DNA of 52,827 bases from an uncultured Methanobacteriaceae archaeon (GTDB lineage Archaea; Methanobacteriota; Methanobacteria; Methanobacteriales; Methanobacteriaceae), in the NCBI GenBank assembly GCA_964444115.1, contig CAYUFT010000002.1, forward strand, positions 1 to 52,827. Reading direction: 5' to 3'. Position numbers and translations under genes: made by a program. The notes under the pieces were generated by a model. The model was given only the letters and a program-made list of their open reading frames with translations. It did not search any database and had not been told where the DNA came from. Within the stretch, counting starts at the first letter, position 1. Each line of letters opens with the position of its first letter. Below, piece by piece: positions 23,701 to 47,836 of this stretch.

Positions 23701-24540
23701 ATGGGATATCTAATATGTATTGTTTGCAACCATTACTATGAAATTTCTAGTACAGATGAAATTTTCGAATTCTGCTCTTGTGGCCGGAAACTGGAATATT
23801 ATGAGTACTTAGAAGATTACCATCAATCGGTTTATCCAAAAAATCGGTTCAATTTAAGTTATTTAAAGAAAATGGAATATAAACATGACACCATAATGAT
23901 GTCTGGTGTTTTTTTATCTTTTTTTGGAATTCTAGGAATTATATATGGTAATCTTTTAGGAATATTACTTTTTTTAGGTGGAATTTATCCCATTTTTTAT
24001 GGTTATGCCAATGGAAAAAGCTGGTACAAAGGCTATGAAGGAGAAAAAACCGTTAAAAAATCTTTAAAAAAATTAAATGGCGGTTATCATATTTTTAATG
24101 ATGTTAAACTTCCGGGATCCTGGGGAAACATAGATCACATTGTAGTAGGCCCCACTGGAATTTTTGTTATTGAATCCAAAAATCTTGGTGGGCTGCATAT
24201 AGTGGATGGAGATAATTGGTCTGCTAAATATAAAGAATATGGTGGATTTAAAAAAAGCTATAAAAGTCCAGGAAAACAGACAAAAGCGAATGCAGCTCAG
24301 CTTCGAAAGTATTTAATAAAAAATGATGTGAATATGAAAGATTTATGGGTTAAATCTATGGTGGCTCTCAATAGTATGCACGTTATTAGAAAATATGATC
24401 CTAAAGATTATGAATTGATTCATCCGGACTATTTAGTGGAATTTATTCATCAAAGGAAGTCTAATATTAAAGAAAGAACTATTAATGAGAGTTTTTATGT
24501 TTTAAGAGGATTTTGTGATAATTATTTTTACAAAGAATAG
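23701..24540 (+). CDS. NERD-domain protein with an N-terminal Cys cluster and TM helices (paralogue of 17161..17990)
   Basis: CIVCNHYY...CSCG, TM IMMSGVFLSFFGILGIIYGNLLGILLFLGGIYPIF, NERD core GEKTVKKSLKKLNGGYHIFNDVKLPGSWGNIDHIVVGPTGIFVIESKN. Confidence 0.8.
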   Translation: MGYLICIVCNHYYEISSTDEIFEFCSCGRKLEYYEYLEDYHQSVYPKNRFNLSYLKKMEYKHDTIMMSGVFLSFFGILGIIYGNLLGILLFLGGIYPIFYGYANGKSWYKGYEGEKTVKKSLKKLNGGYHIFNDVKLPGSWGNIDHIVVGPTGIFVIESKNLGGLHIVDGDNWSAKYKEYGGFKKSYKSPGKQTKANAAQLRKYLIKNDVNMKDLWVKSMVALNSMHVIRKYDPKDYELIHPDYLVEFIHQRKSNIKERTINESFYVLRGFCDNYFYKE

Positions 24541-24555
24541 AAATGATAATATTAT

Positions 24556-25695
24556 CTAAGGCTCATAATCTGGAAAACTATAAACACTAGTAATATAAAG
24601 CCAGTGAATGTCCTCAGCAATTTGCTGGAGGCCAATCCTCAAATATAAATCCCTATTTTCAAATTTTGATTTAATCAAATCATTAATCTGGTCAGAAGAA
24701 TTTCCCTGTTCACTTAAATTATTTAAATAATTTTTAAATGTATAATCCTTTACTGATAAATTATACTCTTCATTTTTTTCATCAATAAAAGACAAAATAC
24801 ATTCTTTTTGATCATTAGTCTCGTATTCTAAATGGTTTATTTTAGAAATCTTAATAGTTCCCATGGACTTTTCAATAACCTTAGATTTTACGAAATTTCC
24901 TTGATGAATTTCATCATGGAAGATATCACTAACTGCTTGGTGACAATCATAATCCAATAATTCTTTTATTTCTTCTTCTGAAAGATTTCTTATAAAAATA
25001 GGGGAAATATCATTATCCCATAGCTTATCTTCTAAATAAGAGCTTTCAATATTTTCAGATAACAATTTTAGTTTTACCACAGAAAATGGCCTAATATTCT
25101 TATTTTCAAGTGAATCTATATTTTCATTAATAGCATCGGTATTGGGAATCAATCTTATTGAATTACCATCATTATCAATCGCATGTACTGTTATTTTATC
25201 ATTAACATTATAAAAGAGATCGGTGATGATTACTGTTTTCAATTCTTCCGTAGGCAAGGTAACTGAACTATCAAATTCGTTTAATATAGAATTAATATTA
25301 GAATCCTTTTCATTATTTTGAACTTGGGCTTCAACTTTTATTTTTTTAGCATAAGTATACCAGCTTCCTTTTGCTATTTTAGCATTATTTAGATCTTCTT
25401 CAGAAATAATTCCAGACGCAATTATCTCTTTTATTTTTTTATTATCTGGTGATAAAACCTGCTCCCAGAGGCCTTTTTGTAAGAGAATAGGTTTTAGTTT
25501 ATCTTCATCCCAACTAACTCGAGTAATATAGTTACGGTAGACCTTTATATCATCACTGATGATTTCATTAACTCTTTTTTGGTCAAATATTTCAAAAAGA
25601 GAATTTCGCATCTTTTTTCGGCGAGATTCCAATTTGTTTATTTGGGATTTTAATTCATAGTATTCTCTGGCCATTTGTTCAGGATCTAATTGCAA
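24556..25695 (-). CDS. Hypothetical protein (N-terminal coiled coil) downstream of the DUF1998 helicase
   Basis: 379-aa ORF, 50 nt downstream of and co-oriented with the helicase gene. The track start is TTG 25695 and the first ATG is at 25674. No catalytic motif recognised. Confidence 0.6.
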   Translation of the reverse strand: MQLDPEQMAREYYELKSQINKLESRRKKMRNSLFEIFDQKRVNEIISDDIKVYRNYITRVSWDEDKLKPILLQKGLWEQVLSPDNKKIKEIIASGIISEEDLNNAKIAKGSWYTYAKKIKVEAQVQNNEKDSNINSILNEFDSSVTLPTEELKTVIITDLFYNVNDKITVHAIDNDGNSIRLIPNTDAINENIDSLENKNIRPFSVVKLKLLSENIESSYLEDKLWDNDISPIFIRNLSEEEIKELLDYDCHQAVSDIFHDEIHQGNFVKSKVIEKSMGTIKISKINHLEYETNDQKECILSFIDEKNEEYNLSVKDYTFKNYLNNLSEQGNSSDQINDLIKSKFENRDLYLRIGLQQIAEDIHWLYITSVYSFPDYEP

Positions 25696-25745
25696 AAAAT
25701 CACCTAGTAATTAAATTAAATAATAAATTGAACGATTAATAATAA

Positions 25746-28550
25746 TTATACTAACTTTTTAAGATTTTTAAAGGCATCTTCATGAAGGGGATTGATACTT
25801 AGTACTTGTGAATAACATTTTATGGCTTCTGCATCATTACCTTCGTACTCCAAACAGAATCCTTTAAGATACCAAGCATCTTCATGGTCTTGAACTTCTT
25901 TAATAACTTGATTTAAAAGTTTAATTGCCTCAACAATCTCATTATCATTGAAAAGAGTGACCGCCTTTAGATAAAGAATTTCAAAATTATCTGGATCTAA
26001 TTTTAAAGCCATATCATAATATTTAAGAGCAAATTCCCTATTCTCTTTCATTTCCATAATCATGGCCTTATATTCTAGAGCTTCCAGGTTTTCTTTAGAA
26101 ACTAATGAACGGTTGAAAAATACCAAAGCATCGTCTAGATTACCTTCATCAAATAATCCTTTTCCTTTTTCATTAAATAGTAAAAATTGGTCACTATTTT
26201 TATAAACCTCAGCACCTATACCAATTTTTTCAGGTCTAGACTCTGAAATTAGGTTTTCATATTCCATGGCCTGAAAAGAGGGATTAATGGATTTTAATAA
26301 ATGCTGTAAAACAATTATGGTTCCTTTTTTATCCAGAGGTTGATTATCATTACCACATTTAGGTGAATAGATGCAAGAAGGGCAACCATCTTTACAGCGG
26401 CATCCTTTGACCATTTGCAAGGTTACTTTAATAATTTCCTCAAACAAAACTGTCGCCTTCTCTGCCAGGCCAATGCCACCCTGATAGGAATCATATATGA
26501 AAATAGTGGCCTCTTGAGTGTCACGGTGGTAAGAAGTGGAAAAGCCACCAATATCATTACGATCACACATGACATGCAAGGGCATCATGGAGATAAGAGC
26601 ATGTTCTGCCCCATGGAGACCTCCTTCAAAAATATCACTAATGGAAAAGAGATTAAATATTTTTTCTTGTATGGAAAAGGGTATGGTGAACCATAATCCT
26701 TTGGTTTGAAATTTTATGGGTGGAAGGTCCAATTTATGCACTTCTAGTGTTTTACCATAGTTCATGACTTTATATTTATCAAAATTTTCCGTAACCTCCA
26801 CTTCCCCAAAATGTATGGACAAATTTCCTGTTTTTCTGGTGTTAATTTCATTAATAACATGGATGTCAACATCTCTCATGACATGGGTGGTGTAATCCAC
26901 GTCTTTTTTAGTTACGTTAATAACTTGTTTTTTTAAATCTAATCTATCAACCAGATAGGTTTCCCCTTTATTCATTAAAACTGCGCCTTCGTGGGCCTCT
27001 CGGTAGGCATAGGAGCGATCCATTTTCTCCAGTAATTTATTCTTGTAAAAAACCTTAAAAGTATCTGAAGATATTTGATCTAATCCATATTCAAAAGCAG
27101 GGCTATTATTTTTATCGAAATAAATCCATCCTTGTTTTGTTCGGGTTACTAGGCCTTTATTAAATAAATTTTCAATAAAATTCAATCCGGTCCCAAAAAT
27201 GGTTTCCATTTCATCATCAGCTAATGGAAGTTCATTGGTGGCACATAAAAGATGAGCTTGAATAATGTGTGGATTTTCAAGACTAATAATTGCATTTTCA
27301 TGGGGCTTGTCAAAGAGGAAAGCGGGATTTTGCATAAAGTACTGATCTAAAGGATTTTCAAAGGCCACCAGGAAAACCATGGCATCGTCTGAACCTCTAC
27401 CAGCTCTTCCAGCTTGTTGCCAGGTAGAAATAACAGTGCCAGGATATCCTGAAATAATTACCACATCTAGAGAACCAATGTTAATACCCATCTCTAAAGC
27501 ATTGGTGGAGGTAACGGCCAGAAGTTCACCTTCTTTTAAACCTTTTTCAATTTTTCTTCTATCTTCAGCTAAGTATCCAGCCCTATAAGCCATTATTTTA
27601 TCTACCATCTCTGGTTTTACCTTATTAAATTCATTTCGAGCTTGATTAGCAATAATTTCGGCCATTTTTCGGGAAATGGTGAAACATAAGGTCTGAAGAT
27701 TAGATAAAACAAAAACCAATAATAAGTTCTTGGTTTCTAAGTGAGTTGATAATTTGTTTTTTACTTTATAGGGATTGTAGAGGACAAAATATTTCTTACC
27801 ACGAGGAGAAGTATCCTCACTGACCAGTTTAAAATCTAAACCTGTGAGTTTATTTCCAAATTCCTTAGGATTGGCCAGAGTAGCTGAAGAAAGGATAAAT
27901 TGAGGATTGGAGCCATAGTAATTACAAATTCTGCGTATTCTTCTTATTAAAAAGGCCACATTTGACCCAAAAACACCTCGATAGTGGTGAGCCTCATCAA
28001 TAACAATAAATTTTAGATTTTTATAGAATTTAGACCATAAATGGTGCCAAGAGAGAATTAAATGCAATTCATAGGGATTAGTGAGAACTAATCTGGAATT
28101 GTCTCTAATCCAGGGTCTGATATCACGAGGAGTATCTCCATCATAAATATTTGGTTCCAGTTCCAGTCCTAATTCTTTTTCCAGATCTCTTAAAATATTT
28201 AACTGGTCATTGGCCAGGGCCTTGGCCGGATAGATATAAAGGGCTGTGGCCTCACTATTTTTAGATAAATTTTCTAATATGGGAATATTAAAAGAAAGTG
28301 TTTTACCTGAAGCTGTGGGAGTGGTAATGAGCACATTTTTTCCATCTCTTAAATATTCAGCAGCCTCACATTGATGTTTATAAAGTTTAATCTGATTATT
28401 TTCTAGATAATTTTGAATATTAGCTGGTAAATTATCTAATTGGTCGTATTGGGCCTCTTTAGGAGGGATGATTTCCACATGTTCTATTTTATCCCGGAAG
28501 AGATTATTGGCCTGGATTTTGTCCAGAGTTTTTTTGATCAAGATAATCAA
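25746..28550 (-). CDS. DEAD/DEAH-box helicase with a DUF1998 (MrfA/YprA-type Zn-binding) domain and C-terminal TPR repeats
   Basis: TTPTASGKT (motif I), VIDEAHHYRG (DEAH), SSAT, QQAGRAGR (motif VI). DUF1998 hallmark HALISMMP...CRCKDGCPSCIYSPKCGNDNQPLDK. The last 170 aa or so are TPR-like (ALKYYDMALKLDPDNFEILYLKA..., AIKCYSQVLSINPLHEDA). Confidence 0.9.
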   Translation of the reverse strand: MIILIKKTLDKIQANNLFRDKIEHVEIIPPKEAQYDQLDNLPANIQNYLENNQIKLYKHQCEAAEYLRDGKNVLITTPTASGKTLSFNIPILENLSKNSEATALYIYPAKALANDQLNILRDLEKELGLELEPNIYDGDTPRDIRPWIRDNSRLVLTNPYELHLILSWHHLWSKFYKNLKFIVIDEAHHYRGVFGSNVAFLIRRIRRICNYYGSNPQFILSSATLANPKEFGNKLTGLDFKLVSEDTSPRGKKYFVLYNPYKVKNKLSTHLETKNLLLVFVLSNLQTLCFTISRKMAEIIANQARNEFNKVKPEMVDKIMAYRAGYLAEDRRKIEKGLKEGELLAVTSTNALEMGINIGSLDVVIISGYPGTVISTWQQAGRAGRGSDDAMVFLVAFENPLDQYFMQNPAFLFDKPHENAIISLENPHIIQAHLLCATNELPLADDEMETIFGTGLNFIENLFNKGLVTRTKQGWIYFDKNNSPAFEYGLDQISSDTFKVFYKNKLLEKMDRSYAYREAHEGAVLMNKGETYLVDRLDLKKQVINVTKKDVDYTTHVMRDVDIHVINEINTRKTGNLSIHFGEVEVTENFDKYKVMNYGKTLEVHKLDLPPIKFQTKGLWFTIPFSIQEKIFNLFSISDIFEGGLHGAEHALISMMPLHVMCDRNDIGGFSTSYHRDTQEATIFIYDSYQGGIGLAEKATVLFEEIIKVTLQMVKGCRCKDGCPSCIYSPKCGNDNQPLDKKGTIIVLQHLLKSINPSFQAMEYENLISESRPEKIGIGAEVYKNSDQFLLFNEKGKGLFDEGNLDDALVFFNRSLVSKENLEALEYKAMIMEMKENREFALKYYDMALKLDPDNFEILYLKAVTLFNDNEIVEAIKLLNQVIKEVQDHEDAWYLKGFCLEYEGNDAEAIKCYSQVLSINPLHEDAFKNLKKLV

Positions 28551-28665: not shown

Positions 28666-28812
28666 GTGGAATCAATTAAAAAAGAAACTAGAGTAGTAAA
28701 ATATAAAACTGGAGAATATGATTTTAGAGATGAAATAAACTTAATTGAAATGTTAAATCAGCTAAAGCCTAAGCCGGACCAATTAGTTGAGATTATTATT
28801 TCAAAAAAGTAA
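28666..28812 (+). CDS. Possible 48-aa small ORF between the two helicase genes
   Basis: GTG start 7 nt after GGGGTG. Encodes (M)ESIKKETRVVKYKTGEYDFRDEINLIEMLNQLKPKPDQLVEIIISKK. Below the ORF-track cutoff and with no homology evidence. Confidence 0.25.
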   Translation: MESIKKETRVVKYKTGEYDFRDEINLIEMLNQLKPKPDQLVEIIISKK

Positions 28813-28839: not shown

Positions 28840-31800
28840 CTATTCTAATTGGGATGTAGTTTTAGGATTATTTTTGAATTTTTCAATAGGTATATAACGT
28901 GTACCTTGAGCAAAGGCCGTTTTTCTGCCTGAAGAATCTTTTTTATCATTTATGATATCATTTTCTAGTTTTATTGTTTCATTAGAATCTGGAGGTGATA
29001 GGAAAAACACTTTACTAGCATAATACAACCTCTCCTGATCATCTTTCTCTTCCAGACTTTTAACTAGATTTAATAGAGCTTCTTTTTTCTCATCACTTAA
29101 TAATTTAGAATTATGAATCAAATCTGGAGATAAAACAAAATTATCTACTACACCCAATATTTTAGGGACGTATTTGGAGACTTTTCCATTAGCATAAAAT
29201 CCTAAATATTCCACATTCCTAAAGGACCTATCTGGTGGGCACATATATACTGAATGATCAAAATATTCATCAATGGCAAATTTAGCAGGTACAATTACCA
29301 CATCTTCATTATAAATATAATCTAAAGCTGAAGGAATAATTAATTCTTTTGGACCAGAAAGCCCATATTCCTCCCTGTATTGTCGAATATATTGAGTAAA
29401 TTCCAAAAGGAACTGAGAAATCCAATTAGGATCTCCATCAAAGGTAATTTCCCAGGAATCTAAAAATTTATCATTTTGATAGATATTAGTTGAATGGGCT
29501 GCACCACATTTATAAAAGAAGTTAATTTTACGCCTTAGAAACTTTTCCCACCATTGATGATCAGTAACTTGTGTTTCATCTAATCTATTTAATTCTGTTA
29601 GTGCTGGGAATTTAGTTGGAGATTTTTTTAATGGAGTTTCTGATGTTCTAAAATCAATTGTTTCTGTCCTTTTTAATCCATTACATGTTTTACATAATAA
29701 TTGCAAATTATCCGCAGAATTATCATGAACATAATATCTAGGTTTAATATGGTCAATTTCTAAAAAATTGACATTATCTTCACCACAGCACTGACAGACA
29801 AAGTTATCTCTTTTAAATATAAACTTTCGGAGATCTTCAGGTAATGGTTCTCTATCTGGATCTTGATCATCATTTATCCAAGGTTTATGAGTTAAAAACG
29901 TTTTAGGAGGATTTAAATATCTGAAAATTCGATAATCCACCTCTGATTTGAATTTTCTAAATTCAGGATATAGTGCCTTCCAATATCGATCTTCTTTTTC
30001 ATATTCACTTTCACAAGCATCATTTAAAGATTTTGGGCCTAAATCATTCATAGCATAAGTCTTTGCTATAGAATCCAAATCATGTTTCTGCCTATCTTCA
30101 AAATTAAAGTATTTAGGTGAGTCTTTATCATTTTGGGCCATGTGCCGTGAAATTTTAAATAAATTCCTTAGAACATCTTTTACCTTATTTTCACTATAGG
30201 TAAATGAGAAAAATTTGTCAAACCATTTTTCAAGACTTTTATTTACATTAGAATCTTTATTTAGGTCAAATTCTAAATTTTCATCTTCAAAAATTTCCAA
30301 ATTCTCATTTTTTAAATGGGTGATAAATTTCTCATAGTAATCTCTTTCTGGGGCTTGATTTTCTTCTTCAAAAACTAATACAAAGTCTTTTACAGATTCA
30401 GGATCTTTATCTTCATTTATTATATCAAATTCAGTTAAATACCATCCCGAAGGCATCAAAGAAGTGAAATTACAGTCAGGAACAATTTCTCCATCTTTAT
30501 CCCTCTCACTAGCCCAATCTATTACCAATTTTATAGATATTAGTTCAAGAGGGATTTTAGGTGGTGAATCTGTTGAATCATCTTCAGGTTCATCACCTGG
30601 AAGAGGATCCCATTCAGCCCAATTAATTTCATACTCCCAGTCATCTACAAAAGAAACTATATTTGCAGTTTCAGTTCCTTTAAATTCAGGACCTCTTAAC
30701 GCCCTTCCTATCATTTGAGTAAGTAATATCTGACTGGTGGTTTGCCGGGTGAGAAATACTGTTTCAGCATCTGGAACATCAGTACCCTCCGTTAACATTT
30801 TAATATTTATTAAAACATCTAAATTTCCATTTTTAAAATTTTCTAATACTTCTAAATTCTTTTGAGCCGTTCCAGCAGTACCTAAAGATTTATCTACCTT
30901 TGTAAACATCACATCAGCATTAACTCCTCTATTTCGCAGGAATTTACACAAAGTGGTGCATTGATACCATCTATCAGTAAAAATTATGGTTTTTCCGTAT
31001 TCTTCTTTATTATCCACATAATTTTGAGCGATTATTCTGTTTCTTTTTTCATTTTTTGCTAGATGCTTAATGATTTTTTGAGGAAGATCTTTATAAGTAT
31101 TAATCCATTTTTGAAATTCTCCCTGATTAAAATCAGCCTTAATTTCGGTATTGATATTCTTGAATATTGGTTTAGAGAGTATTTTATCAGCCATTAATTT
31201 ATCCAAAGTAGTCTGAGAAATATTGGATTGGGGGAATAATTTTCTAAGCCACATTTTCTTATTTTCAGTAGCAGCTGTAGGTGTGGCAGTTAGTCCCAAA
31301 AGATACATATCAGGATGTCTTTTTCTTAAATTCTCAATTAATCGCCTGAAACTTGGAGCTGCTGCATGATGGGCCTCATCAAAGACAACAAATAATTTAT
31401 CACTAGCTGAATCTAGGAAATTCATGAAATGAGGTTGTTCTTTTTCATAAGCGCCCCTAATAGTTTGCAATGTAGCTATAATAACATCGTCATCTTCTTT
31501 AATTTGTTTAGGTGGGTAAAAATTTTGAGCACCCGAAACAACCCTTACTTTGAGTTCTTCTCGAGGTTCTGAAATATAACCTACTTCATATCCTTTATCA
31601 GACTTTTCATATTTAGGACCGAATGTGAAAAATGCCTGTTCTAAAAGGTGATGTGTATGGGCCAGCCATAACACTTTATATCCCTGAGATAGGGGATATT
31701 GACATAGAAATCTTACTGCAGTAACTGTTTTACCACTACCTGTAGGCAAGGCCAGTATTCCTCCTGCATTTTCAGGCCTTTGATTAAACCAATTTGCCAT

Positions 31801-31911
31801 TGCATTAATGGCCTCTTTTTGATGTATTACTGGTTCAAGTACTGATTTCTGTTTACGGCAATCATCAAGATCATATTTTTTATAAAAACCTTCTTTTTCT
31901 ATTAGTGACAT
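28840..31911 (-). CDS. SF2 (ResIII-type) helicase fused to an HNH endonuclease and an unassigned C-terminal domain
   Basis: LALPTGSGKT, VFDEAHHAA, LLGLTATP, TQMIGRALRG. HNH: CQCCGEDNVNFLEIDHIKPRYYVHDNSADNLQLLCKTCNGLKR (about 29672-29800). The C-terminal 170 aa or so (28840 to about 29330) are beta-rich with no recognised motif. Confidence 0.85.
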   Translation of the reverse strand: MSLIEKEGFYKKYDLDDCRKQKSVLEPVIHQKEAINAMANWFNQRPENAGGILALPTGSGKTVTAVRFLCQYPLSQGYKVLWLAHTHHLLEQAFFTFGPKYEKSDKGYEVGYISEPREELKVRVVSGAQNFYPPKQIKEDDDVIIATLQTIRGAYEKEQPHFMNFLDSASDKLFVVFDEAHHAAAPSFRRLIENLRKRHPDMYLLGLTATPTAATENKKMWLRKLFPQSNISQTTLDKLMADKILSKPIFKNINTEIKADFNQGEFQKWINTYKDLPQKIIKHLAKNEKRNRIIAQNYVDNKEEYGKTIIFTDRWYQCTTLCKFLRNRGVNADVMFTKVDKSLGTAGTAQKNLEVLENFKNGNLDVLINIKMLTEGTDVPDAETVFLTRQTTSQILLTQMIGRALRGPEFKGTETANIVSFVDDWEYEINWAEWDPLPGDEPEDDSTDSPPKIPLELISIKLVIDWASERDKDGEIVPDCNFTSLMPSGWYLTEFDIINEDKDPESVKDFVLVFEEENQAPERDYYEKFITHLKNENLEIFEDENLEFDLNKDSNVNKSLEKWFDKFFSFTYSENKVKDVLRNLFKISRHMAQNDKDSPKYFNFEDRQKHDLDSIAKTYAMNDLGPKSLNDACESEYEKEDRYWKALYPEFRKFKSEVDYRIFRYLNPPKTFLTHKPWINDDQDPDREPLPEDLRKFIFKRDNFVCQCCGEDNVNFLEIDHIKPRYYVHDNSADNLQLLCKTCNGLKRTETIDFRTSETPLKKSPTKFPALTELNRLDETQVTDHQWWEKFLRRKINFFYKCGAAHSTNIYQNDKFLDSWEITFDGDPNWISQFLLEFTQYIRQYREEYGLSGPKELIIPSALDYIYNEDVVIVPAKFAIDEYFDHSVYMCPPDRSFRNVEYLGFYANGKVSKYVPKILGVVDNFVLSPDLIHNSKLLSDEKKEALLNLVKSLEEKDDQERLYYASKVFFLSPPDSNETIKLENDIINDKKDSSGRKTAFAQGTRYIPIEKFKNNPKTTSQLE

Positions 31912-32050
31912 TTTGACCCCTTATGAATGTTATACAATTCATTCTATAATTATAGTTGTAAGGTTGATTGTTATATAAAAAGTTTCTAATTTGAATGTCA
32001 AATAGTAAATTTTATAATAGTTTAATATTGATTAATTAATAGGTGTTGTA

Positions 32051-32242
32051 ATGACGGGGGATGAACAGTTTGCAAATATTCTTCTCAAAGAAGTTTTTGA
32101 AGATTTTATAAAAGAATTAGAAAACGATACAGAGTTTCCAAAATATGTTATCAACAATTTAAAGAAATTTAAAACTTATGATTTAACATCAAAAGAAACC
32201 ATGTTAAAATCTTTAAAAAGAGAGGATTCTAATGAAGATTAA
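32051..32242 (+). CDS. Small acidic protein (63 aa) overlapping the start of the ABC ATPase gene
   Basis: ATG preceded by AGGTG. 11-nt overlap with the 32232 gene. No motif. Confidence 0.4.
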   Translation: MTGDEQFANILLKEVFEDFIKELENDTEFPKYVINNLKKFKTYDLTSKETMLKSLKREDSNED

Positions 32243-34604
32243 AAATATTCAAATAGAATCTTTTAGGGGAATACCCTATCTAGATCAACCTTTGAATGAG
32301 AAAAGTTTGTTAATTCATGGCGAAAATGGAACTGGAAAAAGTTCTATAGTAGACGCAATTGAATATTTTTTTACGGGGAATATTTCCCATTTATCTAGGC
32401 CTTTTTCCATTAAAAATCATGGAACTCATACCAATTACTCACCAGAAGATCTTAAGGTATGTTTAGAATTAAATCCAACAAGCTGTTCACTAGAGAGAAC
32501 CATGGATTCAGTACCAATATGTCCTGAGGAACTTGAGGATGATATGGCAGCTGCTGAAAACAGCCCATTTATTTTACGAAGGTCTCAAATTCTTGAATTT
32601 ATTAATAGTGCTCCTGGTAAAAGATATAAACAAATTGGGAGTATGATTGGGGTGGATAATCTAGAAAAGATTGAAAGCACCCTAAAAGATGCCGTCGGTG
32701 ACATCCAGAGCGATATAAATACCAAACTCGGGCATTCCGAGAAAATAAAAGAAAATTTAGGCCAAATTTTAGATGATGATCTGAAAGAAGCTTATGAAAT
32801 TTTGGCTTTAATAAATAATTTTCTAGATAAAGAAGATCTTGATCATTTAGAATCTGTTGATGAAATTGAAGATTATGTTAATAAACTTGAAAAAACAGTT
32901 AAAACAATAGATTCAAGCAAAATTCATACTTTAGATAATATTTCCGGAAAAATTAAGAAAATAAATTCCGCTGATATAGAAATAACTGAGTTATTTAGTA
33001 TAATAGAAGATTTAAAAGAAAAAATCTTCCAAGAGCATGATATTTCTGATTTATCATTAATAGAAATCCTTAAAACTTCTAAAAAAATTCTCACAAAAAG
33101 TAAAACTTGTCCAATATGTGAAAATGAAATTAATGGAAAAGAACTTGTTGAAAAAATTGATGAACGTTTAAATGGGCTTGAAATACTTAAACAAAATCAT
33201 GACGAATTGAAAAAATCTATTAATGATCTTTACAAACTTATTGAGTTAGATAAAAGAAATTTAGAAAGTTTAATTGACGAATTGGAAATATTTGAAGAAT
33301 TTAATGAGTTAAATGATATCGCAACTAATAAAAAAGATTCTTTTGAAGATTTATTGAAAAATATTAATCAAGAGTCTTTCATTAAAGAAGAAATTCAGTT
33401 AGAATACTATGAAACTCTTAAATCGTCTCTAGAAGAATTTTTAAAAGATTTATCAAAACAAAATGAAAAATTAGAAGAAGAATTGAAACCTTCAGAAAAA
33501 GATGAAAATATTACTGAAATTTGTAAGAGTCTTTTAGAAATTAAAGGATATCTAAATGATTTAAATGATTTAAATAAACATATTTCTCAATTAGAGTCTG
33601 AATTAAAACTTGCAGATAAGATGTATACTGTTTTTTCTAAAATTCGAAAGGAAAAAATCCAAGAAATTTATGACACCATTGAAAAAGATGTTCAGAATTT
33701 CTATAGCATAATACATCCCAATGAGTTGTATGATGAGATAAAAATTGATATTGATCATTCGAGAAGAGCAAGTACCAACTTAAAAATGACAATTTTTGGT
33801 AAAGAAGATCAAGATCCTCGTGCATTAAGTAGTGAAGGCCATTTAGATTCATTAGGATTATGTATTTTCTTAGCACTTTTTAAAAATTTTAATAAAGAAT
33901 TCCCTCTTCTGGTTTTAGATGATGTGGTGTCAACCATGGATTCTAGGCACAGAGAACACGTTTGCAAACTTTTGTTTGAAAAATTTGCTGATAAACAACT
34001 TATAATAACTACTCATGATGGAATTTGGTTTGATCAATTAAAAGCTGCTCAAAGAGCCTATGGCCTATCAGGAAAATTTGAAAATATACAAATTGTTGGA
34101 TGGGATCTTGAGAATGGGCCTGTTATTGACAAATACACACCAAGATGGGATCGAATTCAGAATAAAATAAAAGAAAGAGACACTCATTGCGCTGGAAATG
34201 AAGGTCGGCGATATTTAGAATGGTTACTTAAAGAAATTTGTACTAATTCAAAGGCCAAAATTCCCCTAAAATCATCTGGAAGATATGAAATAAATGATCT
34301 TTTTGATCCCGCCAAGACAAGAATGATTAAACTAATCGAAGATCCTGATCTCAAGAAAGAACTTGAATCATCTTTTGATGAATTGAAAGCTACTATGATT
34401 ATGGGTAATTTATTATCTCATGAAAATTTGATGGCCGGAAATGTTTCTATCGATGAAGTAGAAAGTTTTTGCAATTCAATTCACAAACTTCATGAATTTA
34501 TGCTTTGTGATGAATGCAGTAATCCACTTAGATATTATCAAGAGATAAAAGTATTCAGATGTAGTGGTAAGAACTGTTCTAATCCAACCGAGATTAAATG
34601 CTAG
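32232..34604 (+). CDS. PrrC/RloC-like (AAA_13-type) ABC ATPase with a long coiled-coil insert, a CxxC hook and a C-terminal His-containing module plus Zn ribbon
   Basis: Walker A GENGTGKSS (about 32328-32354). Roughly 400 aa of heptad-rich insert with CPIC at 33108-33119. Signature-like LSSEGHLDSLGL, Walker B LLVLDDVVSTMD, H-loop ITTHD. C-terminal GRRYLEWLLKE ... GNLLSHEN ... CDECSN...FRCSGKNC. Confidence 0.75.
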   Translation: MKIKNIQIESFRGIPYLDQPLNEKSLLIHGENGTGKSSIVDAIEYFFTGNISHLSRPFSIKNHGTHTNYSPEDLKVCLELNPTSCSLERTMDSVPICPEELEDDMAAAENSPFILRRSQILEFINSAPGKRYKQIGSMIGVDNLEKIESTLKDAVGDIQSDINTKLGHSEKIKENLGQILDDDLKEAYEILALINNFLDKEDLDHLESVDEIEDYVNKLEKTVKTIDSSKIHTLDNISGKIKKINSADIEITELFSIIEDLKEKIFQEHDISDLSLIEILKTSKKILTKSKTCPICENEINGKELVEKIDERLNGLEILKQNHDELKKSINDLYKLIELDKRNLESLIDELEIFEEFNELNDIATNKKDSFEDLLKNINQESFIKEEIQLEYYETLKSSLEEFLKDLSKQNEKLEEELKPSEKDENITEICKSLLEIKGYLNDLNDLNKHISQLESELKLADKMYTVFSKIRKEKIQEIYDTIEKDVQNFYSIIHPNELYDEIKIDIDHSRRASTNLKMTIFGKEDQDPRALSSEGHLDSLGLCIFLALFKNFNKEFPLLVLDDVVSTMDSRHREHVCKLLFEKFADKQLIITTHDGIWFDQLKAAQRAYGLSGKFENIQIVGWDLENGPVIDKYTPRWDRIQNKIKERDTHCAGNEGRRYLEWLLKEICTNSKAKIPLKSSGRYEINDLFDPAKTRMIKLIEDPDLKKELESSFDELKATMIMGNLLSHENLMAGNVSIDEVESFCNSIHKLHEFMLCDECSNPLRYYQEIKVFRCSGKNCSNPTEIKC

Positions 34605-34701: not shown

Positions 34702-36258
34702 ATGGCAGTGAATAACAGCGAGATAGAAAACAAATTATGGAAAGCAGCCGATCAACTGAGAGCAAACTCAAAATTAACAGCCTCTGAATACTCAATTCCA
34801 GTTTTAGGACTAATTTTTTTACGTTATGCTGATTCTAAATTTACTTTGGCAAAAGAAAAGATAGAAAGCGAATTTAAAAATAAGAATAGTCGGATGGGAA
34901 TCAAGAAAGAACACTATCAATCAAAAGGTGTTCTATATCTCCCTGAAGAATCACGTTTTTCAAATCTTCTAGAACTGCCTGAAGACCAAAATATAGGAAG
35001 GGCAGTAAATGATGCCATGAAGGCCATTGAAGCTGAAAATGATGAATTAAAAGACGTATTACCCAAAACTTACAACCGATTAGAAAATGATGTATTGATT
35101 TCATTATTAAAAAACTTCTCTAACATATCAATTGATCTTGAAGGAGATGTTTTTGGGAAAATTTACGAATATTTCTTAGGTAAATTCGCAATGGCTGAAG
35201 GCCAACGGGGAGGAGAATTTTTTACTCCTACATCTTTAGTTAAATTGATAGTAGCGATAATCAAACCATTCCATGGCCGTATTTATGATCCTGCATGTGG
35301 TTCTGGAGGTATGTTTGTCCAGAGTGCTCATTTTGTAGAAGAGCATAAAAAAAATCCTACCAAAGAAATAGCAATTTATGGGCAGGAAAAAACTGCAGCC
35401 ACTATAAGATTATGTAAGATGAATCTTGCCGTGCATGGTTTATCCGGAGATATAAGACAAGGAAACACGTATTATGAAGATATACACAACTCTTTTGGTA
35501 AATTCGACTTTGTAATGGCCAATCCACCATTTAATGTGAGTGGGGTCGATAAAGAAAAGGTTAAAGACGATAAAAGATTTTCTTATGGTATTCCTCGTGC
35601 TGACAATGGAAACTATCTCTGGATTGAAGCTTTTGCCAATGCACTTAATCCAAAAGGGCGTGCCGGATTTGTCATGGCCAATTCTGCTGGTGACGCTGGA
35701 CAGTCTGAACTTGAAATTCGTAAAAAGTTAATCGAAGAAGGAATTGTAGATGTAATGGTTTCAGTAGGGCCTAATTTCTTTTATACTGTAACTTTACCTT
35801 GCAGCCTATGGTTTTTAGATAAAAACAAAAAAGGAACTCCTACTGAAAATAAAGTTCTTTTCATAGATGCTCGTGAAACTTATAGGCAAATTGACCGTGC
35901 ACATCGCGATTTTAAACCAGAACAAATTGAATTTTTAGCAAATATTGCTAGACTCTATCGTGGAGAAGAAATCGAGAATTTACATAATAGTAAATCGTTA
36001 GTTAATGAAACTTTTCCCGAAGGAGAATATAAAAATGTTTTAGGTCTTTGTAAATTAGTAAATTTTGATGAAATCATTGAAAATGGATATTCACTGAATC
36101 CTGGCCGTTATGTTGGTGTTGCTGAAATGGAAGAAGATGAATTTGATTTTAATGAGCGTTTGCATGAAATAAATAATGAGTTTCAACATTTGAATAAAAA
36201 AGCCCATGAATTAGAGAAAACAATTACAGAAAATTTATCTTCTTTATTGGAGAAATAG
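34702..36258 (+). CDS. hsdM: Type I restriction-modification system, methyltransferase subunit
   Basis: HsdM N-terminal helix bundle (LWKAADQLR), FFTP, motif [13 protein letters not shown], motif [11 protein letters not shown]. Confidence 0.95.
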
Positions 36259-36259
36259 C

Positions 36260-37561
36260 ATGCTTAAATTTCATAAATTAGATAATGTGACAAATTTCCT
36301 CGGTAGGGGTGTTCAGCCAGCCTATGATGAAAATGGAATTATTGTTTTTAATCAAAGGTGCATTAGGAATAATATTGTAAGTTTAAAGGAATCTCGAATT
36401 ACTAATCCTGAAAAAAGAAAAATTTCTAAAGAAAAATTTCTTCAAAAATATGATGTTTTAGTTAATTCAACGGGTGTAGGCACTCTAGGACGTGTTGGGC
36501 AGATTAAAGATATAAATTACGCCGCTACTGTGGATTCTCATGTAACCATTGTGAGACCGAATTTAAGTTGTTTTAATGGATTATTTTTTGGATATGCAAT
36601 GGTGTATTCCCAACCAAAAATAGAAGCTATGGGAGAAGGTACTACTGGTCAGACAGAACTTTCTAGAAAACGTTTAGGTTCTCAAATTAAAGTTCCTATC
36701 CCTAATTTAGAAATTCAAAATAAAATTGCTGAAATTCTTACAGCATATGATAATCTTATTGAAAACAATAATAATAGGATTCAAATATTATCTAAATTAA
36801 CAGAAATTATTTTTAGAGAATGGTTTATAAAATACAGATTCCCAAGTAAAGAAAAATTCGAAATGATTGAATCAAAAGTAGGATTAATACCTCAAAATTG
36901 GGAAATTAAGCCTTTGAGAGAGCTAATTTCTTATTACATTGGTGGTGGATGGGGAAAAGAATATCATGAATCTGATTTTCCTGATGAAGCATATGTAATT
37001 AGAGGTACTGACATACCCCAAGTTTCAGTTGGAAATTTAAAATCGTGTCCACATCGATTCCATAAAGCTTCAAATTTAAAATCAAGAAAAATTAAATCAA
37101 CGGATATTGTATTTGAGGTTTCTGGAGGAAGCAAAGGTCAACCCGTAGGTAGAAATATTCTCATTACAGAAGAAGTTGTTAATAGGCTGAGTAATATTAT
37201 GTGTGCGAGTTTTTGTAAATTGATTAGGCCTAATAATGAATTAATTAGCCCATTCTTTTTAGATCAATTCTTTAAATATATTTATAAATCTGGTGAAATT
37301 TTAACTTATCAAACACAATCAACGGGAATTTCAAATTTCAAATTTGAATATTTCTTAGATAAAGTTATGATCGCTGTTCCTCCTAAAGAGTTATCAATTG
37401 AATTTACAAATATTATATCTCCGATTTATGAATTGATAGCTAAATTAGGCCATAAAAACGAAATTTTACTTCAAAAAAGAGATTTAATCCTTCCCAAACT
37501 TATTTCAGGCCAAATAGATATCACAGATTTAGATATTATCACAGAGGAGATAGAATCATGA
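36260..37561 (+). CDS. hsdS: Type I restriction-modification system, specificity subunit (two TRDs)
   Basis: Two variable halves, each followed by a conserved helix (ILTAYDNLIENNNNRIQILSKLTEIIFREWF and LLQKRDLILPKLISGQIDI). 1-nt gap from hsdM and 4-nt overlap with hsdR. Confidence 0.9.
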   Translation: MLKFHKLDNVTNFLGRGVQPAYDENGIIVFNQRCIRNNIVSLKESRITNPEKRKISKEKFLQKYDVLVNSTGVGTLGRVGQIKDINYAATVDSHVTIVRPNLSCFNGLFFGYAMVYSQPKIEAMGEGTTGQTELSRKRLGSQIKVPIPNLEIQNKIAEILTAYDNLIENNNNRIQILSKLTEIIFREWFIKYRFPSKEKFEMIESKVGLIPQNWEIKPLRELISYYIGGGWGKEYHESDFPDEAYVIRGTDIPQVSVGNLKSCPHRFHKASNLKSRKIKSTDIVFEVSGGSKGQPVGRNILITEEVVNRLSNIMCASFCKLIRPNNELISPFFLDQFFKYIYKSGEILTYQTQSTGISNFKFEYFLDKVMIAVPPKELSIEFTNIISPIYELIAKLGHKNEILLQKRDLILPKLISGQIDITDLDIITEEIES

Positions 37562-40500
37562 CTCCAGGTTCATATTCTGAAGATGCATTGATTGAACAAC
37601 CAGCCATTGAATTGTTCAAGTCTTTAGGCTATGAACATAAAAATGGTTTTCATGAGACATTAGGTGAAAATGGAACTTTTAGTAGAGAAACTCAATCAGA
37701 AGTTGTTCTTAAAAAGCGATTAAAAGATTCTCTAATTCGTTTAAACCCTGGAATACCAGATCATATCATTGATCTTGCAATTGAAGACATCAGTAGAGAT
37801 AGGAGTATTCTAAATCCTACTGTGGCCAATCATGAAATTTATAAAATGATTCGAGATGGGATTAAAGTAAGTGTCAATTTTGATGAGGAATATGAAGAAA
37901 TTGAAACTCTAAAGATAATTGATTTTGATAACCCAAATAATAACGACTTTTTTTTGGCTTCACAGTTCTGGATCACTGGAGATATTGAGAAAAGAAGAGC
38001 AGATTTAGTAGGTTTTGTTAATGGCCTACCCCTTATTTTTATTGAACTAAAAGCAGCACATCGGAAAGTTAGTGATGCATTTACACATAATTTATCAGAT
38101 TATAAAGATACTATTCCCCAATTATTCTGGTATAACACTTTTATTATATTATCAAATGGTTCTCAAAGCAAAATTGGAACCATATCTGCTAAATTAGAAC
38201 ATTTTAGTGATTGGAAAAGAATTTCTAGTGAAGGAGAAAAAGGAATAATTTCTTTAGACACGATTATAAGAGGAACTTGTCAAAAAGAAAGATTTTTAGA
38301 TTTATTAGAAAACTTCACATTATTTAATGACGGTGGAACTCTGATTAAGATTCTAGGAAGAAACCACCAATATTTAGGAGTTAATAATGCCATTGAATCT
38401 TTTGAAAAGATTAAAGAAAACCAGGGAAAATTAGGGGTTTTCTGGCATACTCAGGGGAGCGGGAAAAGTTATTCCATGATTTTCTTTTCACAGAAAATTT
38501 TAAGGAAATTCCCTGGAAATTACACTTTTTTAATTGTTACTGATAGAAAAGAGTTAGATGATCAGATTTATAAAAATTTTGCCAATGCTGGTGCAGTAAT
38601 TGAGGATGAAGTACATGCAAAAAGCGGCGCCCATTTACAAGAGCTCTTAAGAGAAAACCATCGCAATATTTTCACACTTATCCATAAATTTCAAACAGAT
38701 GAAGGTGAAATCTATCCTGTTTTATCGGAACGTTCAGATATCATTGTTATTACTGACGAAGCACATCGTTCTCAGTACTCTACACTGGCCATGAACATGC
38801 GAACTGCACTTCCTAATGCTGCTTTTATTGCGTTTACCGGAACTCCTTTAATGGCGGGAGAAGAACTTACTAAAAATACCTTTGGGGATTATGTTAGCAT
38901 ATACAACTTCCGACAGTCTATTGAAGATCAGGCAACGGTTCCTTTATACTATGAGAACCGTATCCCAGAAGTTCAACTCAAAAATAAGGATCTTAACTCA
39001 GATATGGAGCGTATTATTGAAGATGCGCTGCTTGATGAGGACCAGCTGCAAAAACTTGAGCGAGAATTTGCCAGAGAATATCACTTAATAACTCGCAATG
39101 ATCGGCTCGAAAAAGTTGCAGAAGATATTGTCGATCATTTTATAGGCCGTGGCTATGATGGAAAAGCCATGGTAGTGTCCATTGATAAACCAACTGCAGT
39201 TAAAATGTACAATAAAGTTCAAGAATACTGGAAACATCATATTATTGAACTCCAAGATGAAATTAATCTTATTGATGATCCATCCCATAGAAAAGAGCTT
39301 GAAAATAAGCTTAATTTTATGATGGAAACTGATATGGCCGTTGTGGTAAGTGGTGGTCAAAATGAATTTGAAAAGTTCAAGCGCCTTAATTTAGACATAA
39401 AATCCCATCGTAAGAGAATGCAAAGTGAAGATTTAGCTTCCATGTTCAAAGATGCTGATAACCCTTTCAGAATTGTTTTTGTATGTGCTATGTGGATGAC
39501 TGGTTTTGATGTTCCTTCACTTTCAACCATTTACTTAGATAAACCAATGCGTAACCATACACTAATGCAGACTATCGCAAGAGCAAATAGGGTCTTTGAA
39601 GATAAGCCAAATGGTTTAATTGTTGATTACATTGGAGTATTTAGAGATTTGAAGAGAGCTTTGGCAATATATGGAGCTCCTGGAGAAGAATCAGAGGATA
39701 TTCCTGTAAAACCAAAATCAGAACTCATCGAAGAACTTAAAGAAGCATTAGATGAGATTGAAAGTTTTTGTAAAGAAAAAGAAATTAATACAATAGATAT
39801 TATATCTACAACAGGTTTTGAGAAAGTTAAACTCCTTGAAGATGCTGTAGATTCAATTTTAGTTAATGAAGATTCTAAAAAGAAATATTTTACCTTAGAA
39901 AGTGCTGTAAAAAACTTATTTAAAGCAATATTGCCTGATCGTGATGCTGGAATATTTAACGAAAAGGTTACATTATTTAGAATAATTTCCGAAAAAATTA
40001 GATCTTTAGATCCTGATGTTGATATATCCGAAGTAATGGACGACGTTGAGAAATTACTCGATGATTCGATTGAAAGCGAAGGATATATGATAAAAGCTAA
40101 AGGAAAAGGGATAGATTTAAGTAAAATCGACTTTGATGCTTTAAGAAAACACTTCGAAACAGGTAGAAAACATACAAAAGCAGAAAAGCTCAAAAATGAT
40201 GTTCAAAGAAAGGTTAAAGAGATGGTAACTCTTAATCAAACCAGAATAGATTTCATGGAAAAATTTGAAAAGATAATAAACGATTATAATTCTGGATCTG
40301 CCAACGTAGAAGCATTTTTTGAAGAATTGATGGAATTTGCAAAGGAGTTGAATAAAGAAGATATAAGGGGCATTTCTGAAAATCTTACTGAAGAAGAATT
40401 AGTAATCTTTGATTTGATTTACAAAGATGATCTAAAAGAAAAAGAAAAGAAAAAAGTTAAAAATACAGCTAAGTATCTTCTTAAAGTTCTAAAAAACGAA

Positions 40501-40701
40501 AAATTAGTTATTGACTGGAGAAAAAAACAGCAGTCAAGAGCTGATGTGTTATTTACTATTGAAAGCATTTTAGATGAATGTTTACCAAGAAGTTACTCTC
40601 CAGAAATATACGAAGAAAAATGTAATTTTGTTTATCAGCATATTTATGATTCATATTATGGGGTTGGGGAAAGCCTATATTCCAAAATGGGAATTGCTTG
40701 A
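37558..40701 (+). CDS. hsdR: Type I restriction enzyme, endonuclease/translocase subunit
   Basis: N-terminal nuclease region (RADLVGFVNGLPLIFIELKA), WHTQGSGKS, VITDEAHRSQ, FTGTP, QTIARANR. Confidence 0.95.
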   Translation: MTPGSYSEDALIEQPAIELFKSLGYEHKNGFHETLGENGTFSRETQSEVVLKKRLKDSLIRLNPGIPDHIIDLAIEDISRDRSILNPTVANHEIYKMIRDGIKVSVNFDEEYEEIETLKIIDFDNPNNNDFFLASQFWITGDIEKRRADLVGFVNGLPLIFIELKAAHRKVSDAFTHNLSDYKDTIPQLFWYNTFIILSNGSQSKIGTISAKLEHFSDWKRISSEGEKGIISLDTIIRGTCQKERFLDLLENFTLFNDGGTLIKILGRNHQYLGVNNAIESFEKIKENQGKLGVFWHTQGSGKSYSMIFFSQKILRKFPGNYTFLIVTDRKELDDQIYKNFANAGAVIEDEVHAKSGAHLQELLRENHRNIFTLIHKFQTDEGEIYPVLSERSDIIVITDEAHRSQYSTLAMNMRTALPNAAFIAFTGTPLMAGEELTKNTFGDYVSIYNFRQSIEDQATVPLYYENRIPEVQLKNKDLNSDMERIIEDALLDEDQLQKLEREFAREYHLITRNDRLEKVAEDIVDHFIGRGYDGKAMVVSIDKPTAVKMYNKVQEYWKHHIIELQDEINLIDDPSHRKELENKLNFMMETDMAVVVSGGQNEFEKFKRLNLDIKSHRKRMQSEDLASMFKDADNPFRIVFVCAMWMTGFDVPSLSTIYLDKPMRNHTLMQTIARANRVFEDKPNGLIVDYIGVFRDLKRALAIYGAPGEESEDIPVKPKSELIEELKEALDEIESFCKEKEINTIDIISTTGFEKVKLLEDAVDSILVNEDSKKKYFTLESAVKNLFKAILPDRDAGIFNEKVTLFRIISEKIRSLDPDVDISEVMDDVEKLLDDSIESEGYMIKAKGKGIDLSKIDFDALRKHFETGRKHTKAEKLKNDVQRKVKEMVTLNQTRIDFMEKFEKIINDYNSGSANVEAFFEELMEFAKELNKEDIRGISENLTEEELVIFDLIYKDDLKEKEKKKVKNTAKYLLKVLKNEKLVIDWRKKQQSRADVLFTIESILDECLPRSYSPEIYEEKCNFVYQHIYDSYYGVGESLYSKMGIA

Positions 40702-42884: not shown

Positions 42885-43681
42885 TGAAATTTTCATCCTC
42901 CGATATTTTCTGTATTTGTAAAATTATTAATGATTATTTCCCGTTAGAAGTCATTATCGGTGAGTTAACTGAAATTACTAATGATCAGGATTTAGATACA
43001 TTTCCAGAAATTCAGGAAACTATTTATAATTCAACTCAATCATTAAACTCAGATGCTATTAATGAATTAAGCGAATATTTTCATAGTTATCATATTAACT
43101 TTTTTTTGTTTATTAAAAAATTTGTCTCTGAAGAATTTTCAGAAACTTATTTAGAATATTTCCAATCATCAGATTTCTTAAAAAAGTTAAATAAAATTTT
43201 AATTGCCTATGAAATACGTATTAAAAACTATAAAATCCAAAAAAGAGTTTTTTTATTGCAAAATAGCTCTTTAGAGGAAAATTTATTATTTGTAGATATA
43301 ATAACACCAGATCATGTTGTTGATTATTACAAAGAATCATTAATTTGTCTAAATAATGAAACATTTAGATCATCTATTCTTTTTTGTGTTTTTGCTTTTG
43401 AGGCCGGGCTAAAATGTATGTATTATACTGTAGAAAAAAAAATTCCAAACGAACCGCTTCGTAGATTAATAGATTGGGCCAATAATAATAATCTTTTAGA
43501 AAAATTAGATGAAGACTATGATGAAGGCTATGAGGAATTAATTAAATTAAAAGATTATAGGAATATTCTTGTACATTGTAGTCCAAAGGAACGCGAAGAT
43601 ATCTCTTCAGAAATTGCAGGAAACCGAGCAGTAGCTGATTTAAATTTAATTAACCAGTCTTTAAATTCAATATTTGATTAA
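42884..43681 (+). CDS. HEPN-domain protein (predicted RNase)
   Basis: C-terminal four-helix pattern with FAFEAGLKCMYY... and the R-x4-H motif KDYRNILVHCS (43559-43576). Its start shares 1 nt with the stop of the upstream gene (TAATG). Confidence 0.6.
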   Translation: MKFSSSDIFCICKIINDYFPLEVIIGELTEITNDQDLDTFPEIQETIYNSTQSLNSDAINELSEYFHSYHINFFLFIKKFVSEEFSETYLEYFQSSDFLKKLNKILIAYEIRIKNYKIQKRVFLLQNSSLEENLLFVDIITPDHVVDYYKESLICLNNETFRSSILFCVFAFEAGLKCMYYTVEKKIPNEPLRRLIDWANNNNLLEKLDEDYDEGYEELIKLKDYRNILVHCSPKEREDISSEIAGNRAVADLNLINQSLNSIFD

Positions 43682-47831: not shown

Positions 47832-47836
47832 GTATA

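Follow-up and report, generated by a model that had tools for sequence, protein, structure and literature searches.

A helicase-HNH protein with a putative PUA-like reader domain in a Methanobacteriaceae defence island

SauUSI is a type IV, ATP-dependent, modification-dependent enzyme that combines a nuclease, an ATPase and a reader (PMC6765204, PMC12707154). In PbeA, an HKD nuclease of the phospholipase D (PLD) type is fused to a superfamily 2 (SF2) helicase, and the partners of the protein are a CxC ABC ATPase and a polypeptide resembling DndE (PMC10853773). The nuclease of Hna is a C-terminal PD-(D/E)XK domain, and Hna lacks a reader (PMC13381803). Here, we describe a gene in a 52,827-nt stretch of DNA from an uncultured Methanobacteriaceae archaeon (contig CAYUFT010000002.1, assembly GCA_964444115.1; G+C content about 31%), which we call the window. 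The gene, located at 28840..31911 on the minus strand, encodes a protein of 1023 amino acids (aa) in which an SF2 motor is followed by an HNH nuclease and by a C-terminal domain predicted to adopt a PUA-like fold.

According to the list of open reading frames (ORFs) and their translations, the gene is a single unbroken ORF with its stop codon at 28840-28842. The SF2 DNA motor (aa 29-424; 30640..31827, minus strand) is matched by the Pfam families ResIII (29-212, 1.7e-24) and Helicase_C (296-406, 2.7e-13) and contains the Walker A motif GSGKT (58-62), DEAH (178-181), TATP (208-211) and motif VI, GRALRG (402-407). The HNH nuclease, of the beta-beta-alpha-Me type (aa 701-760; 29632..29811, minus strand), contains the motifs CQCCG (706-710), EIDHIKP (718-724) and NLQLLCKTCN (735-744). 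These include the zinc ligands CxCC 706-709 and C740/C743, as well as D721-H722, N735 and N744. The segment is matched by Pfam HNH (706-747, 4.8e-8), by HNH_4 and HNH_5, and by the HNH models of IscB and Cas9. Even at E≤10, Pfam returned no family for aa 425-700 or 760-1023. A preliminary description of this DNA, made from the sequence, had already proposed one 1023-aa polypeptide in which an SF2 motor and an HNH nuclease are joined to a C-terminal module that could not be assigned. The ORF, all the motifs it quoted and the Pfam matches agree with it, and its quoted C-terminal strings lie between aa 873 and 1007.

Full-length relatives support this layout. An orthologue that is also 1023 aa long and 92% identical (P0001) was read on 11 contigs from ENA, JGI and Logan assemblies, and a further 1023-aa copy is present in an NCBI Methanobacteriaceae metagenome-assembled genome (MAG; L023), so the fusion is real and not an artefact of assembly. 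The gene is intact in at least 12 independent Methanobacteriaceae assemblies; a scan of a genome collection returned two loci only. Broken copies, each split into three to four ORFs, were also observed (L010 6237-9318 and L002 9992-13093), and they are either pseudogenes or the product of indel-rich long-read assemblies. An apparently stand-alone protein of 170 aa (P0274), 75% identical to the C-terminus of the window protein, is a fragment of such a broken copy.

When the whole protein was compared with PADLOC, NCBIfam and Pfam, only generic helicase and HNH parts were matched and no named system was recognised, in agreement with the preliminary description. SauUSI (PDB 7CLG) resembles the window protein in joining a nuclease, an SF2 ATPase/helicase and a C-terminal reader (putative here) in one polypeptide, and the motors are homologous: among PDB sequences, the motor is matched best by the SauUSI-type 7clg_A (E = 1.8e-12, aa 139-443), and the PADLOC mREase_IV models match the same part (7.2e-17 and 4.7e-15). 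However, the SauUSI nuclease is an N-terminal PLD domain, whereas the nuclease of the window protein is an HNH located after the motor and no PLD match was obtained. The SauUSI reader is the SRA-like DUF3427, whereas here a new PUA-like family occupies the C-terminus. Additionally, aa 425-700 and 761-860 are without a SauUSI counterpart, and the host is an archaeon. The combination of an HNH nuclease with a PUA-superfamily reader is shared with VcaM4I (EVE-HNH) and TagI (SRA-HNH), but these are small, two-domain, ATP-independent enzymes with an N-terminal reader, in contrast to the 860-aa motor-containing core of the window protein, whose putative reader also lacks sequence similarity to the EVE, SRA, ASCH and YTH models.

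The best profiles of the helicase module are those of PbeA in PADLOC (2.4e-29) and of the Dnd-associated HKD-SF2 proteins (TIGR04095, dnd_restrict_1; 3.5e-21), and RadD, Hef, XPB and the EcoAI HsdR were also matched. By sequence, the affinity of the motor appears to be with the DNA translocases of restriction systems and not with RNA helicases. An assignment to the PbeA/Dnd group was nevertheless rejected: the HKD domain is absent, the partners are absent nearby, and the TIGR04095 score is 75.7 bits against a curated cut-off of 600. Hna likewise joins a helicase and a nuclease in a single defence polypeptide, but its assignment was discarded because the nuclease of the window protein is an HNH and not a PD-(D/E)XK domain, and a sequence relationship was not detected.

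The C-terminal domain (aa 868-1023; 28843..29310, minus strand) is the least familiar part of the protein. Pfam at E≤10 yielded zero families for aa 854-1023, and in none of the members tested is the domain covered by a model of Pfam, NCBIfam or PADLOC. The Pfam models of ASCH, EVE, YTH, PUA and SRA matched none of 43 domain-family members at E≤10, a PDB profile search with the domain gave nothing relevant, and hhalign against the EVE domain encoded elsewhere in the window gave a probability of 0.1%. A profile of the domain, searched against 1.84 billion cluster representatives at 50% identity, retrieved 793 of them at E≤1e-3, of which 451 reached E≤1e-10; wherever a member bears a name, it is "hypothetical protein", with no precomputed Pfam domain. 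Among the residues that are invariant in the domain family are, in the numbering of the window protein, Y883, Y889, C891, R895, F897, F905, Y906, R1005 and Y1006.

An AlphaFold2 (AF2) model computed with a 7-sequence alignment was unusable (predicted local distance difference test score, pLDDT, 46.6), and an alignment of 43 diverse stand-alone members was used instead, giving a pLDDT of 96.3 and a predicted template modelling (TM) score of 0.89. In the numbering of this model, the secondary structure elements are E3-8, H12-19, E21-24, E35-40, E50-59, E98-104 and E138-141. This order of beta1, helix, beta2 and further strands appears to fit the PUA/ASCH core described in PMC7641849; the superfamily is also treated in PMC12707154. 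The 15 top Foldseek matches in the PDB are all ASCH, YTH or EVE proteins, although with weak scores (probability 1.0-0.5, TM 0.38-0.49). TTHA0113 (2dp9) is the best of them (E = 1.7e-3, probability 1.0, TM 0.49), and the others include the Zymomonas ASCH protein (5guq/5y6b/5y6c), the YTH domains of YTHDC1 and MRB1, AF2351 and the EVE-HNH restriction enzyme VcaM4I. PF0455, PH0355 and the ASCH amidohydrolase YqfB are found lower in the list, amid unrelated folds, and the viral library BFVD again returned ASCH proteins. Based on this model and on these weak scores, the predicted fold is PUA-like, with ASCH, YTH and EVE proteins, not SRA, as its top structural matches. Since the fold scores are modest and no link was found at the sequence level, the domain is best described as a new PUA-like family and not as a member of ASCH, EVE or YTH. 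The preliminary description had suggested a PUA/SRA-like reader of about 170 aa, rich in beta structure, but could not assign it. The PUA part of this suggestion and the lack of a sequence assignment stand, but the SRA part does not, and the domain measures about 156-165 aa with a mixed alpha/beta structure around a beta-barrel. A viral origin of the domain was considered and set aside, as no relative was found in the IMG/VR viral contigs.

The remainder of the protein belongs to a very large family. The homologue search scored 8,000 candidates and returned at least 2,698 clusters at E≤1e-5, a count that is thus a lower bound, from Methanobacteriaceae, Methanomicrobiales, Chloroflexota, Cyanobacteria and others; the databases give these proteins no more specific name than "DEAD/DEAH box helicase family protein". 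Typical homologues are 830-900 aa long and align to the query from position 1 to about 860, that is, over about 84% of its length. When 120 homologues were aligned, conservation reached at least 80% both in the helicase motifs and in the catalytic and zinc residues of the HNH domain, whose consensus is C.CCGE..L..DH..P.Y....NLQTLC..CN..K. The middle region (aa 425-700; 29812..30639, minus strand), for which searches with PDB-sequence profiles and Pfam gave no meaningful match, had been taken for an acidic linker of about 250 aa. It is acidic (23.6% aspartate plus glutamate), but because the homologues align over it, within positions 1 to about 860, and because it contains invariant W, F, R and H positions, it is a conserved, family-specific region and not a linker; among 14 diverse homologues, it has 20 invariant columns and a mean column identity of 48%. 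The roughly 100 aa that follow the HNH domain (aa 761-860; 29332..29631, minus strand) had not been set apart in the preliminary description. They belong to the conserved core of the family, with more than 0.9 occupancy and several conserved positions (FR, W, R..N.FY and W...L.N.P.W) in the 120-homologue alignment, and they match nothing in Pfam or among PDB sequences. In one homologue (P0092), the HNH domain and this stretch occur as a duplicated unit.

A core homologue is also found on chromosome II of Deinococcus radiodurans (WP_027479745.1; L026 7872-10484, NZ_OV024759.1), with 39.5% identity over aa 1-835. It is divergent from a class I S-adenosylmethionine-dependent methyltransferase and is surrounded by metabolic genes. 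D. radiodurans would be a tractable organism for the core family.

What varies among these proteins is the segment beyond the core. Among 121 sequences, 87 have no C-terminal extension (<40 aa), 8 have one of 40-120 aa, and 26 have one of at least 120 aa. Of the latter, 17 consist of HEAT repeats, 7 are domains of the query type, and the rest are oddities such as an FGE-sulfatase domain or a second HNH unit. The layout of the window protein is not a one-off but a rare C-terminal variant (7/121) of a very large helicase-HNH family. The seven sequences fall into two clades. In the first (the query, P0001 and P0002), the nearest core relatives, at about 60% identity, lack the domain, and in the second (P0008-P0011), the nearest core relatives, at about 52%, carry HEAT repeats. 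Between the two clades, the core is about 44-47% identical and the C-terminal domain 51-54% identical. This greater likeness of the domain suggests that core lineages have exchanged the 3′ module or, alternatively, that the module was lost repeatedly. Additionally, Methanobacteriaceae helicase-HNH cores often carry about 300 aa of C-terminal HEAT repeats (P0013, P0014, P0016 and P0020), a separate HEAT-repeat gene may adjoin the core gene instead (L011 10525-11682; L008 7861-9675), and the P0008-P0011 proteins have a HEAT-like insert before the HNH domain in addition to the PUA-like tail.

A small ORF of 48 aa (MESIKKETRVVKYKTGEYDFRDEINLIEMLNQLKPKPDQLVEIIISKK; 28666..28812, plus strand) is convergent with the helicase-HNH gene and located 28 nt from its stop; it has a GTG start with GGGGTG upstream. 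Convergent copies were found beside helicase-HNH genes at four further kinds of locus: in L002 (13128-13280), where the small ORF is 92% identical and the helicase 60%; in L022 (3601-3747; 92% and 69%); in L003-L007 (L003 13064-13258; 83% and 92%); and in L023 (8001-8147), where the small ORF is 88% identical and the helicase is 1023 aa long. In L008/L009 (L008 13327-13476), of the P0011 lineage, the small ORF is co-directional and 69% identical, with a helicase identity of 43%. The small ORF, 69-92% identical across loci, is thus better conserved than the large gene, at 43-92%. The substitutions relative to the L008 copy are mostly at third codon positions, so the small ORF is coding. Among 5.8 billion proteins, its product forms only seven clusters, two of which bear a name, one being that of a Methanobacteriaceae MAG. 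Every copy that could be placed in a locus adjoins a PUA-bearing helicase-HNH gene, and the small ORF is missing beside the P0008-type genes; it travels with the PUA-like 3′ module and not with the core. For this reason, the earlier view of a monocistronic, single-gene unit needs a caveat: the larger neighbours do differ between loci, but the convergent 48-aa ORF is conserved. The idea, formed by eye, that the small protein is an AbrB/MazE-like antitoxin was dropped, given that it had no Pfam match, an hhalign probability of 0.2% and PDB matches at the level of noise.

The proteins in which the C-terminal domain occurs elsewhere provide a further view of its role. Of 258 domain-family members analysed, many are stand-alone proteins of about 160 aa, and 136 have an N-terminal partner of at least 100 aa. 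In 119 of these 136, the partner is a single family of 168-aa domains, in which a PD-(D/E)XK-like signature (…GENR…PDA.I…fEtK) was read by eye from the consensus, with no profile confirmation; one member of this group also carries DUF6508. The corresponding two-domain proteins (about 320-335 aa, annotated as hypothetical proteins), in which this putative restriction endonuclease (REase) precedes the PUA-like domain, make up the bulk of the domain family and share it with the window protein (E down to 1e-47), but their effector is the 168-aa domain and they have no motor. Eight other partners are HSDR_N/MmeI_N-like nuclease domains, with weak Pfam matches; two are TIR_2 domains (1e-17; ThsB1 model 2.4e-48; P0131/P0151); one is a GIY-YIG domain matching the full validated PD-T4-3 model (3.8e-43; P0265, 429 aa); and two cluster together, the one scanned (P0215) being a Swt1-type HEPN domain. 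In being swapped among nuclease, TIR and HEPN effectors, the domain resembles the sensor modules of conflict systems. By analogy, the dominance of DNA endonucleases among its partners would be the pattern of modification-dependent restriction enzymes (PMC6765204). Based on their domain content, P0265, P0131/P0151 and P0215 are candidates for new single-protein defence architectures.

Considering these results together, we propose that the product of the window gene, which lies in a Methanobacteriaceae defence island, is a type IV-like restriction nuclease that depends on ATP and stands alone, a reading that relies on analogy with characterised enzymes and to which we give about an even chance of being correct. 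The protein has an intact SF2 motor module for double-stranded DNA of the SauUSI/PbeA/HsdR kind and an intact HNH domain with its zinc ligands, and PUA-bearing genes of this kind lie in three unrelated defence-island neighbourhoods, those of the window, P0011 and P0008. In the proposed mechanism, the PUA-like domain would flip out, or otherwise bind, a modified or non-host base in invading DNA, and this binding would recruit or license the enzyme; the motor would then use ATP to translocate along this DNA, with the HNH domain cutting at a variable distance from the mark. Members of the core family without a reader would have to locate their targets in some other way, and the C-terminal slot, whether empty or occupied by HEAT repeats or the PUA-like domain, would consequently serve as an exchangeable module for specificity or licensing. 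The product of the linked 48-aa ORF may regulate or partner the PUA-like module. Several observations weigh against this proposal. The structural matches found by Foldseek score weakly (E 1.7e-3 at best, TM 0.41-0.49), with no profile link to ASCH, EVE or YTH, and many ASCH and YTH domains bind RNA. A host type I N6-methyladenine methylase is encoded two genes away (34702-36258), so a reader would need to avoid the marks of its own cell. Some partners of the domain (TIR and HEPN) are typical abortive-infection effectors and not DNA cutters, and stand-alone copies occur in housekeeping contexts too. As for the core, 87 of the 121 family members are without a C-terminal extension, several bacterial core genes sit amid metabolic or housekeeping genes, and defence is therefore a candidate role of the core family.

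The TIR and HEPN fusions speak for an abortive-infection reading, in which the domain would sense an infection cue that is not a mark on DNA (a modified RNA, a viral product or a signal derived from nucleotides, for example) and would release the helicase-HNH core to degrade all the DNA of the cell indiscriminately. The ASCH and YTH relatives, such as YqfB and YTHDC1, are mostly RNA or nucleoside binders, and single-protein helicase-nucleases such as Hna act in this way (PMC13381803). Nevertheless, we consider this reading unlikely, as DNA endonuclease folds clearly predominate among the partners (119+8 of 136 PD-(D/E)XK-like, plus the GIY-YIG/PD-T4-3 fusion), a signature of modification-dependent restriction (PMC6765204), and no conserved signalling enzyme was found nearby. 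A different possibility is that the domain recognises the modification of the host and blocks cleavage, so that the enzyme would attack unmodified foreign DNA. A type I methyltransferase and a second N6-methyltransferase fusion lie within 10 kb, and, since cores without a reader exist, the domain would be dispensable for cutting. However, no methyltransferase partner is conserved across the loci, and the cited characterised PUA-nuclease fusions are all modification-dependent and none modification-inhibited (PMC6765204, PMC7897488, PMC12707154); this mode of action is thus very improbable.

The genomic surroundings bear on a housekeeping role, in which the core would be a DNA-repair or recombination helicase-nuclease that processes damaged or stalled DNA, the domain would target a damaged or modified base, and the location in an island would be incidental. 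Core homologues of the Chloroflexota/Cyanobacteria type and that of D. radiodurans chromosome II do lie amid metabolic genes, and the motor also resembles the repair helicases RadD, Hef and XPB. Against this, all PUA-bearing genes with enough flanking sequence to judge, together with the core gene of M. paludis, are located amid restriction-modification (RM), McrBC or BREX genes: the P0001 locus contains McrBC-like genes, an SMC-like ATPase and a DUF4011 helicase; the P0011 locus a HEAT protein, a PLD-helicase and BREX; the P0008 locus PglZ, EVE-McrB and UvrD; and the M. paludis gene adjoins McrBC and a separate HEAT protein. Additionally, the flanks have been swapped between orthologues that are 92% identical, as occurs in defence hot spots, and the variable C-terminal module and the broken copies (L002 and L010) are both typical of defence genes. 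A housekeeping function therefore seems to us quite unlikely. It is conceivable, though doubtful, that the domain founds an unrecognised, portable family of infection or modification sensors, comprising about 800 clusters at 50% identity and serving at least six types of effector (helicase-HNH, two PD-(D/E)XK families, PD-T4-3-type GIY-YIG, ThsB-like TIR and Swt1-HEPN), of which the window gene with its 48-aa partner would be the motor-driven member. As ligand, one could then imagine a hypermodified base, or a signal derived from nucleotides, that the known EVE, SRA, YTH and ASCH domains do not read.

If the type IV-like restriction reading is true, the protein would represent a third architecture of ATP-dependent, modification-dependent restriction, after McrBC and SauUSI, and an archaeal one. 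To our knowledge, hardly any defence protein from archaea has so far been characterised. The accessible part of a 2025 review of type IV enzymes covers PUA-nuclease fusions and SauUSI and mentions no helicase-HNH-PUA type, although the literature covered here is incomplete and an earlier description is possible. The distinct character of the protein noted in the preliminary description stands insofar as no profile assigned the whole protein to a characterised system and the HNH residues are conserved among the homologues. The more novel element is the unannotated family of PUA-like sensors together with the co-travelling 48-aa gene. Its roughly 800 clusters of hypothetical proteins would be PUA-like readers missed by annotation and by defence-finder tools, and the ligand specificity of the domain, if the reading holds, would be useful for the mapping of base modifications, as with other PUA-nuclease fusions. 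The exchangeable C-terminal slot would also offer a handle on the function of the whole helicase-HNH family, with its more than 2,600 clusters.

The window as a whole is a dense defence island. Divergent from the helicase-HNH gene is a gene for an SMC/LmuB-like ABC ATPase of 790 aa (32232-34604, plus strand); a candidate archaeal TATA box read from the sequence, TTTATATA (31972..31979, minus strand), lies within the divergent intergenic region of 139 bp, at about 64 nt upstream of the start codon (ATG) of the helicase-HNH gene. The ATPase had been called RloC-like, but the RloC and PrrC models were not matched. It has a Cys-rich C-terminal tail, and its gene is preceded by a 63-aa ORF, the pair spanning 32051-34604 (plus strand). 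The gene at the same position of the P0001 locus (L003 7154-9782) encodes a protein that is 24% identical over its full length (E 4e-60), which reflects either a distant homologue swapped in at a hot spot or very fast diversification. A functional pairing of the ATPase with the helicase-HNH protein was rejected, since the ATPase gene is absent from the P0011 and P0008 loci and is 24% identical between orthologous loci against 92% for the helicase-HNH gene. Lamassu was also rejected: the LmuB-like neighbour is divergent and not co-oriented, there is no LmuA-like partner, and the neighbour is absent from the P0011 and P0008 loci.

Beyond the ATPase gene lie a type I RM system (hsdM, hsdS and hsdR; 34702-40701) and, directly after hsdR, a 714-aa fusion of an HSDR_N_2 nuclease domain with an N6 DNA methylase, a type IIG-like single-chain RM protein (40740-42884, plus strand), which is followed by a 265-aa ORF (42884-43681) without an assignment. 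At 43695-49624 (plus strand), a gene for an EVE, MrcB_N and AAA_5 protein of 1378 aa precedes a DUF2357/PDDEXK_7 McrC-like gene. These two genes form an EVE-McrBC type IV system; one PUA-superfamily reader is thus already present in the island, without sequence similarity to the C-terminal domain studied here. A BrxD-like ATPase gene is located at 49662-50912.

On the other side of the helicase-HNH gene, a gene for a YprA-family helicase with an MZB domain and C-terminal tetratricopeptide repeats (25746-28550, minus strand; TIGR03817, 738 bits) lies together with those for a 379-aa protein with a weak match to TOTE-type Mu-Gam (24556-25695, minus strand) and a NERD nuclease (23701-24540, plus strand). 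An operon with the YprA-family helicase gene was rejected in view of the 289-bp gap, the convergent small ORF between the two genes and the presence of another gene in the orthologous loci. The set formed by the NERD nuclease, the 379-aa protein and the YprA-family helicase (23701-28550) resembles the rare TALON/TOTE-like systems, which are largely confined to Chloroflexota (PMC12458937); the host here is a methanogen.

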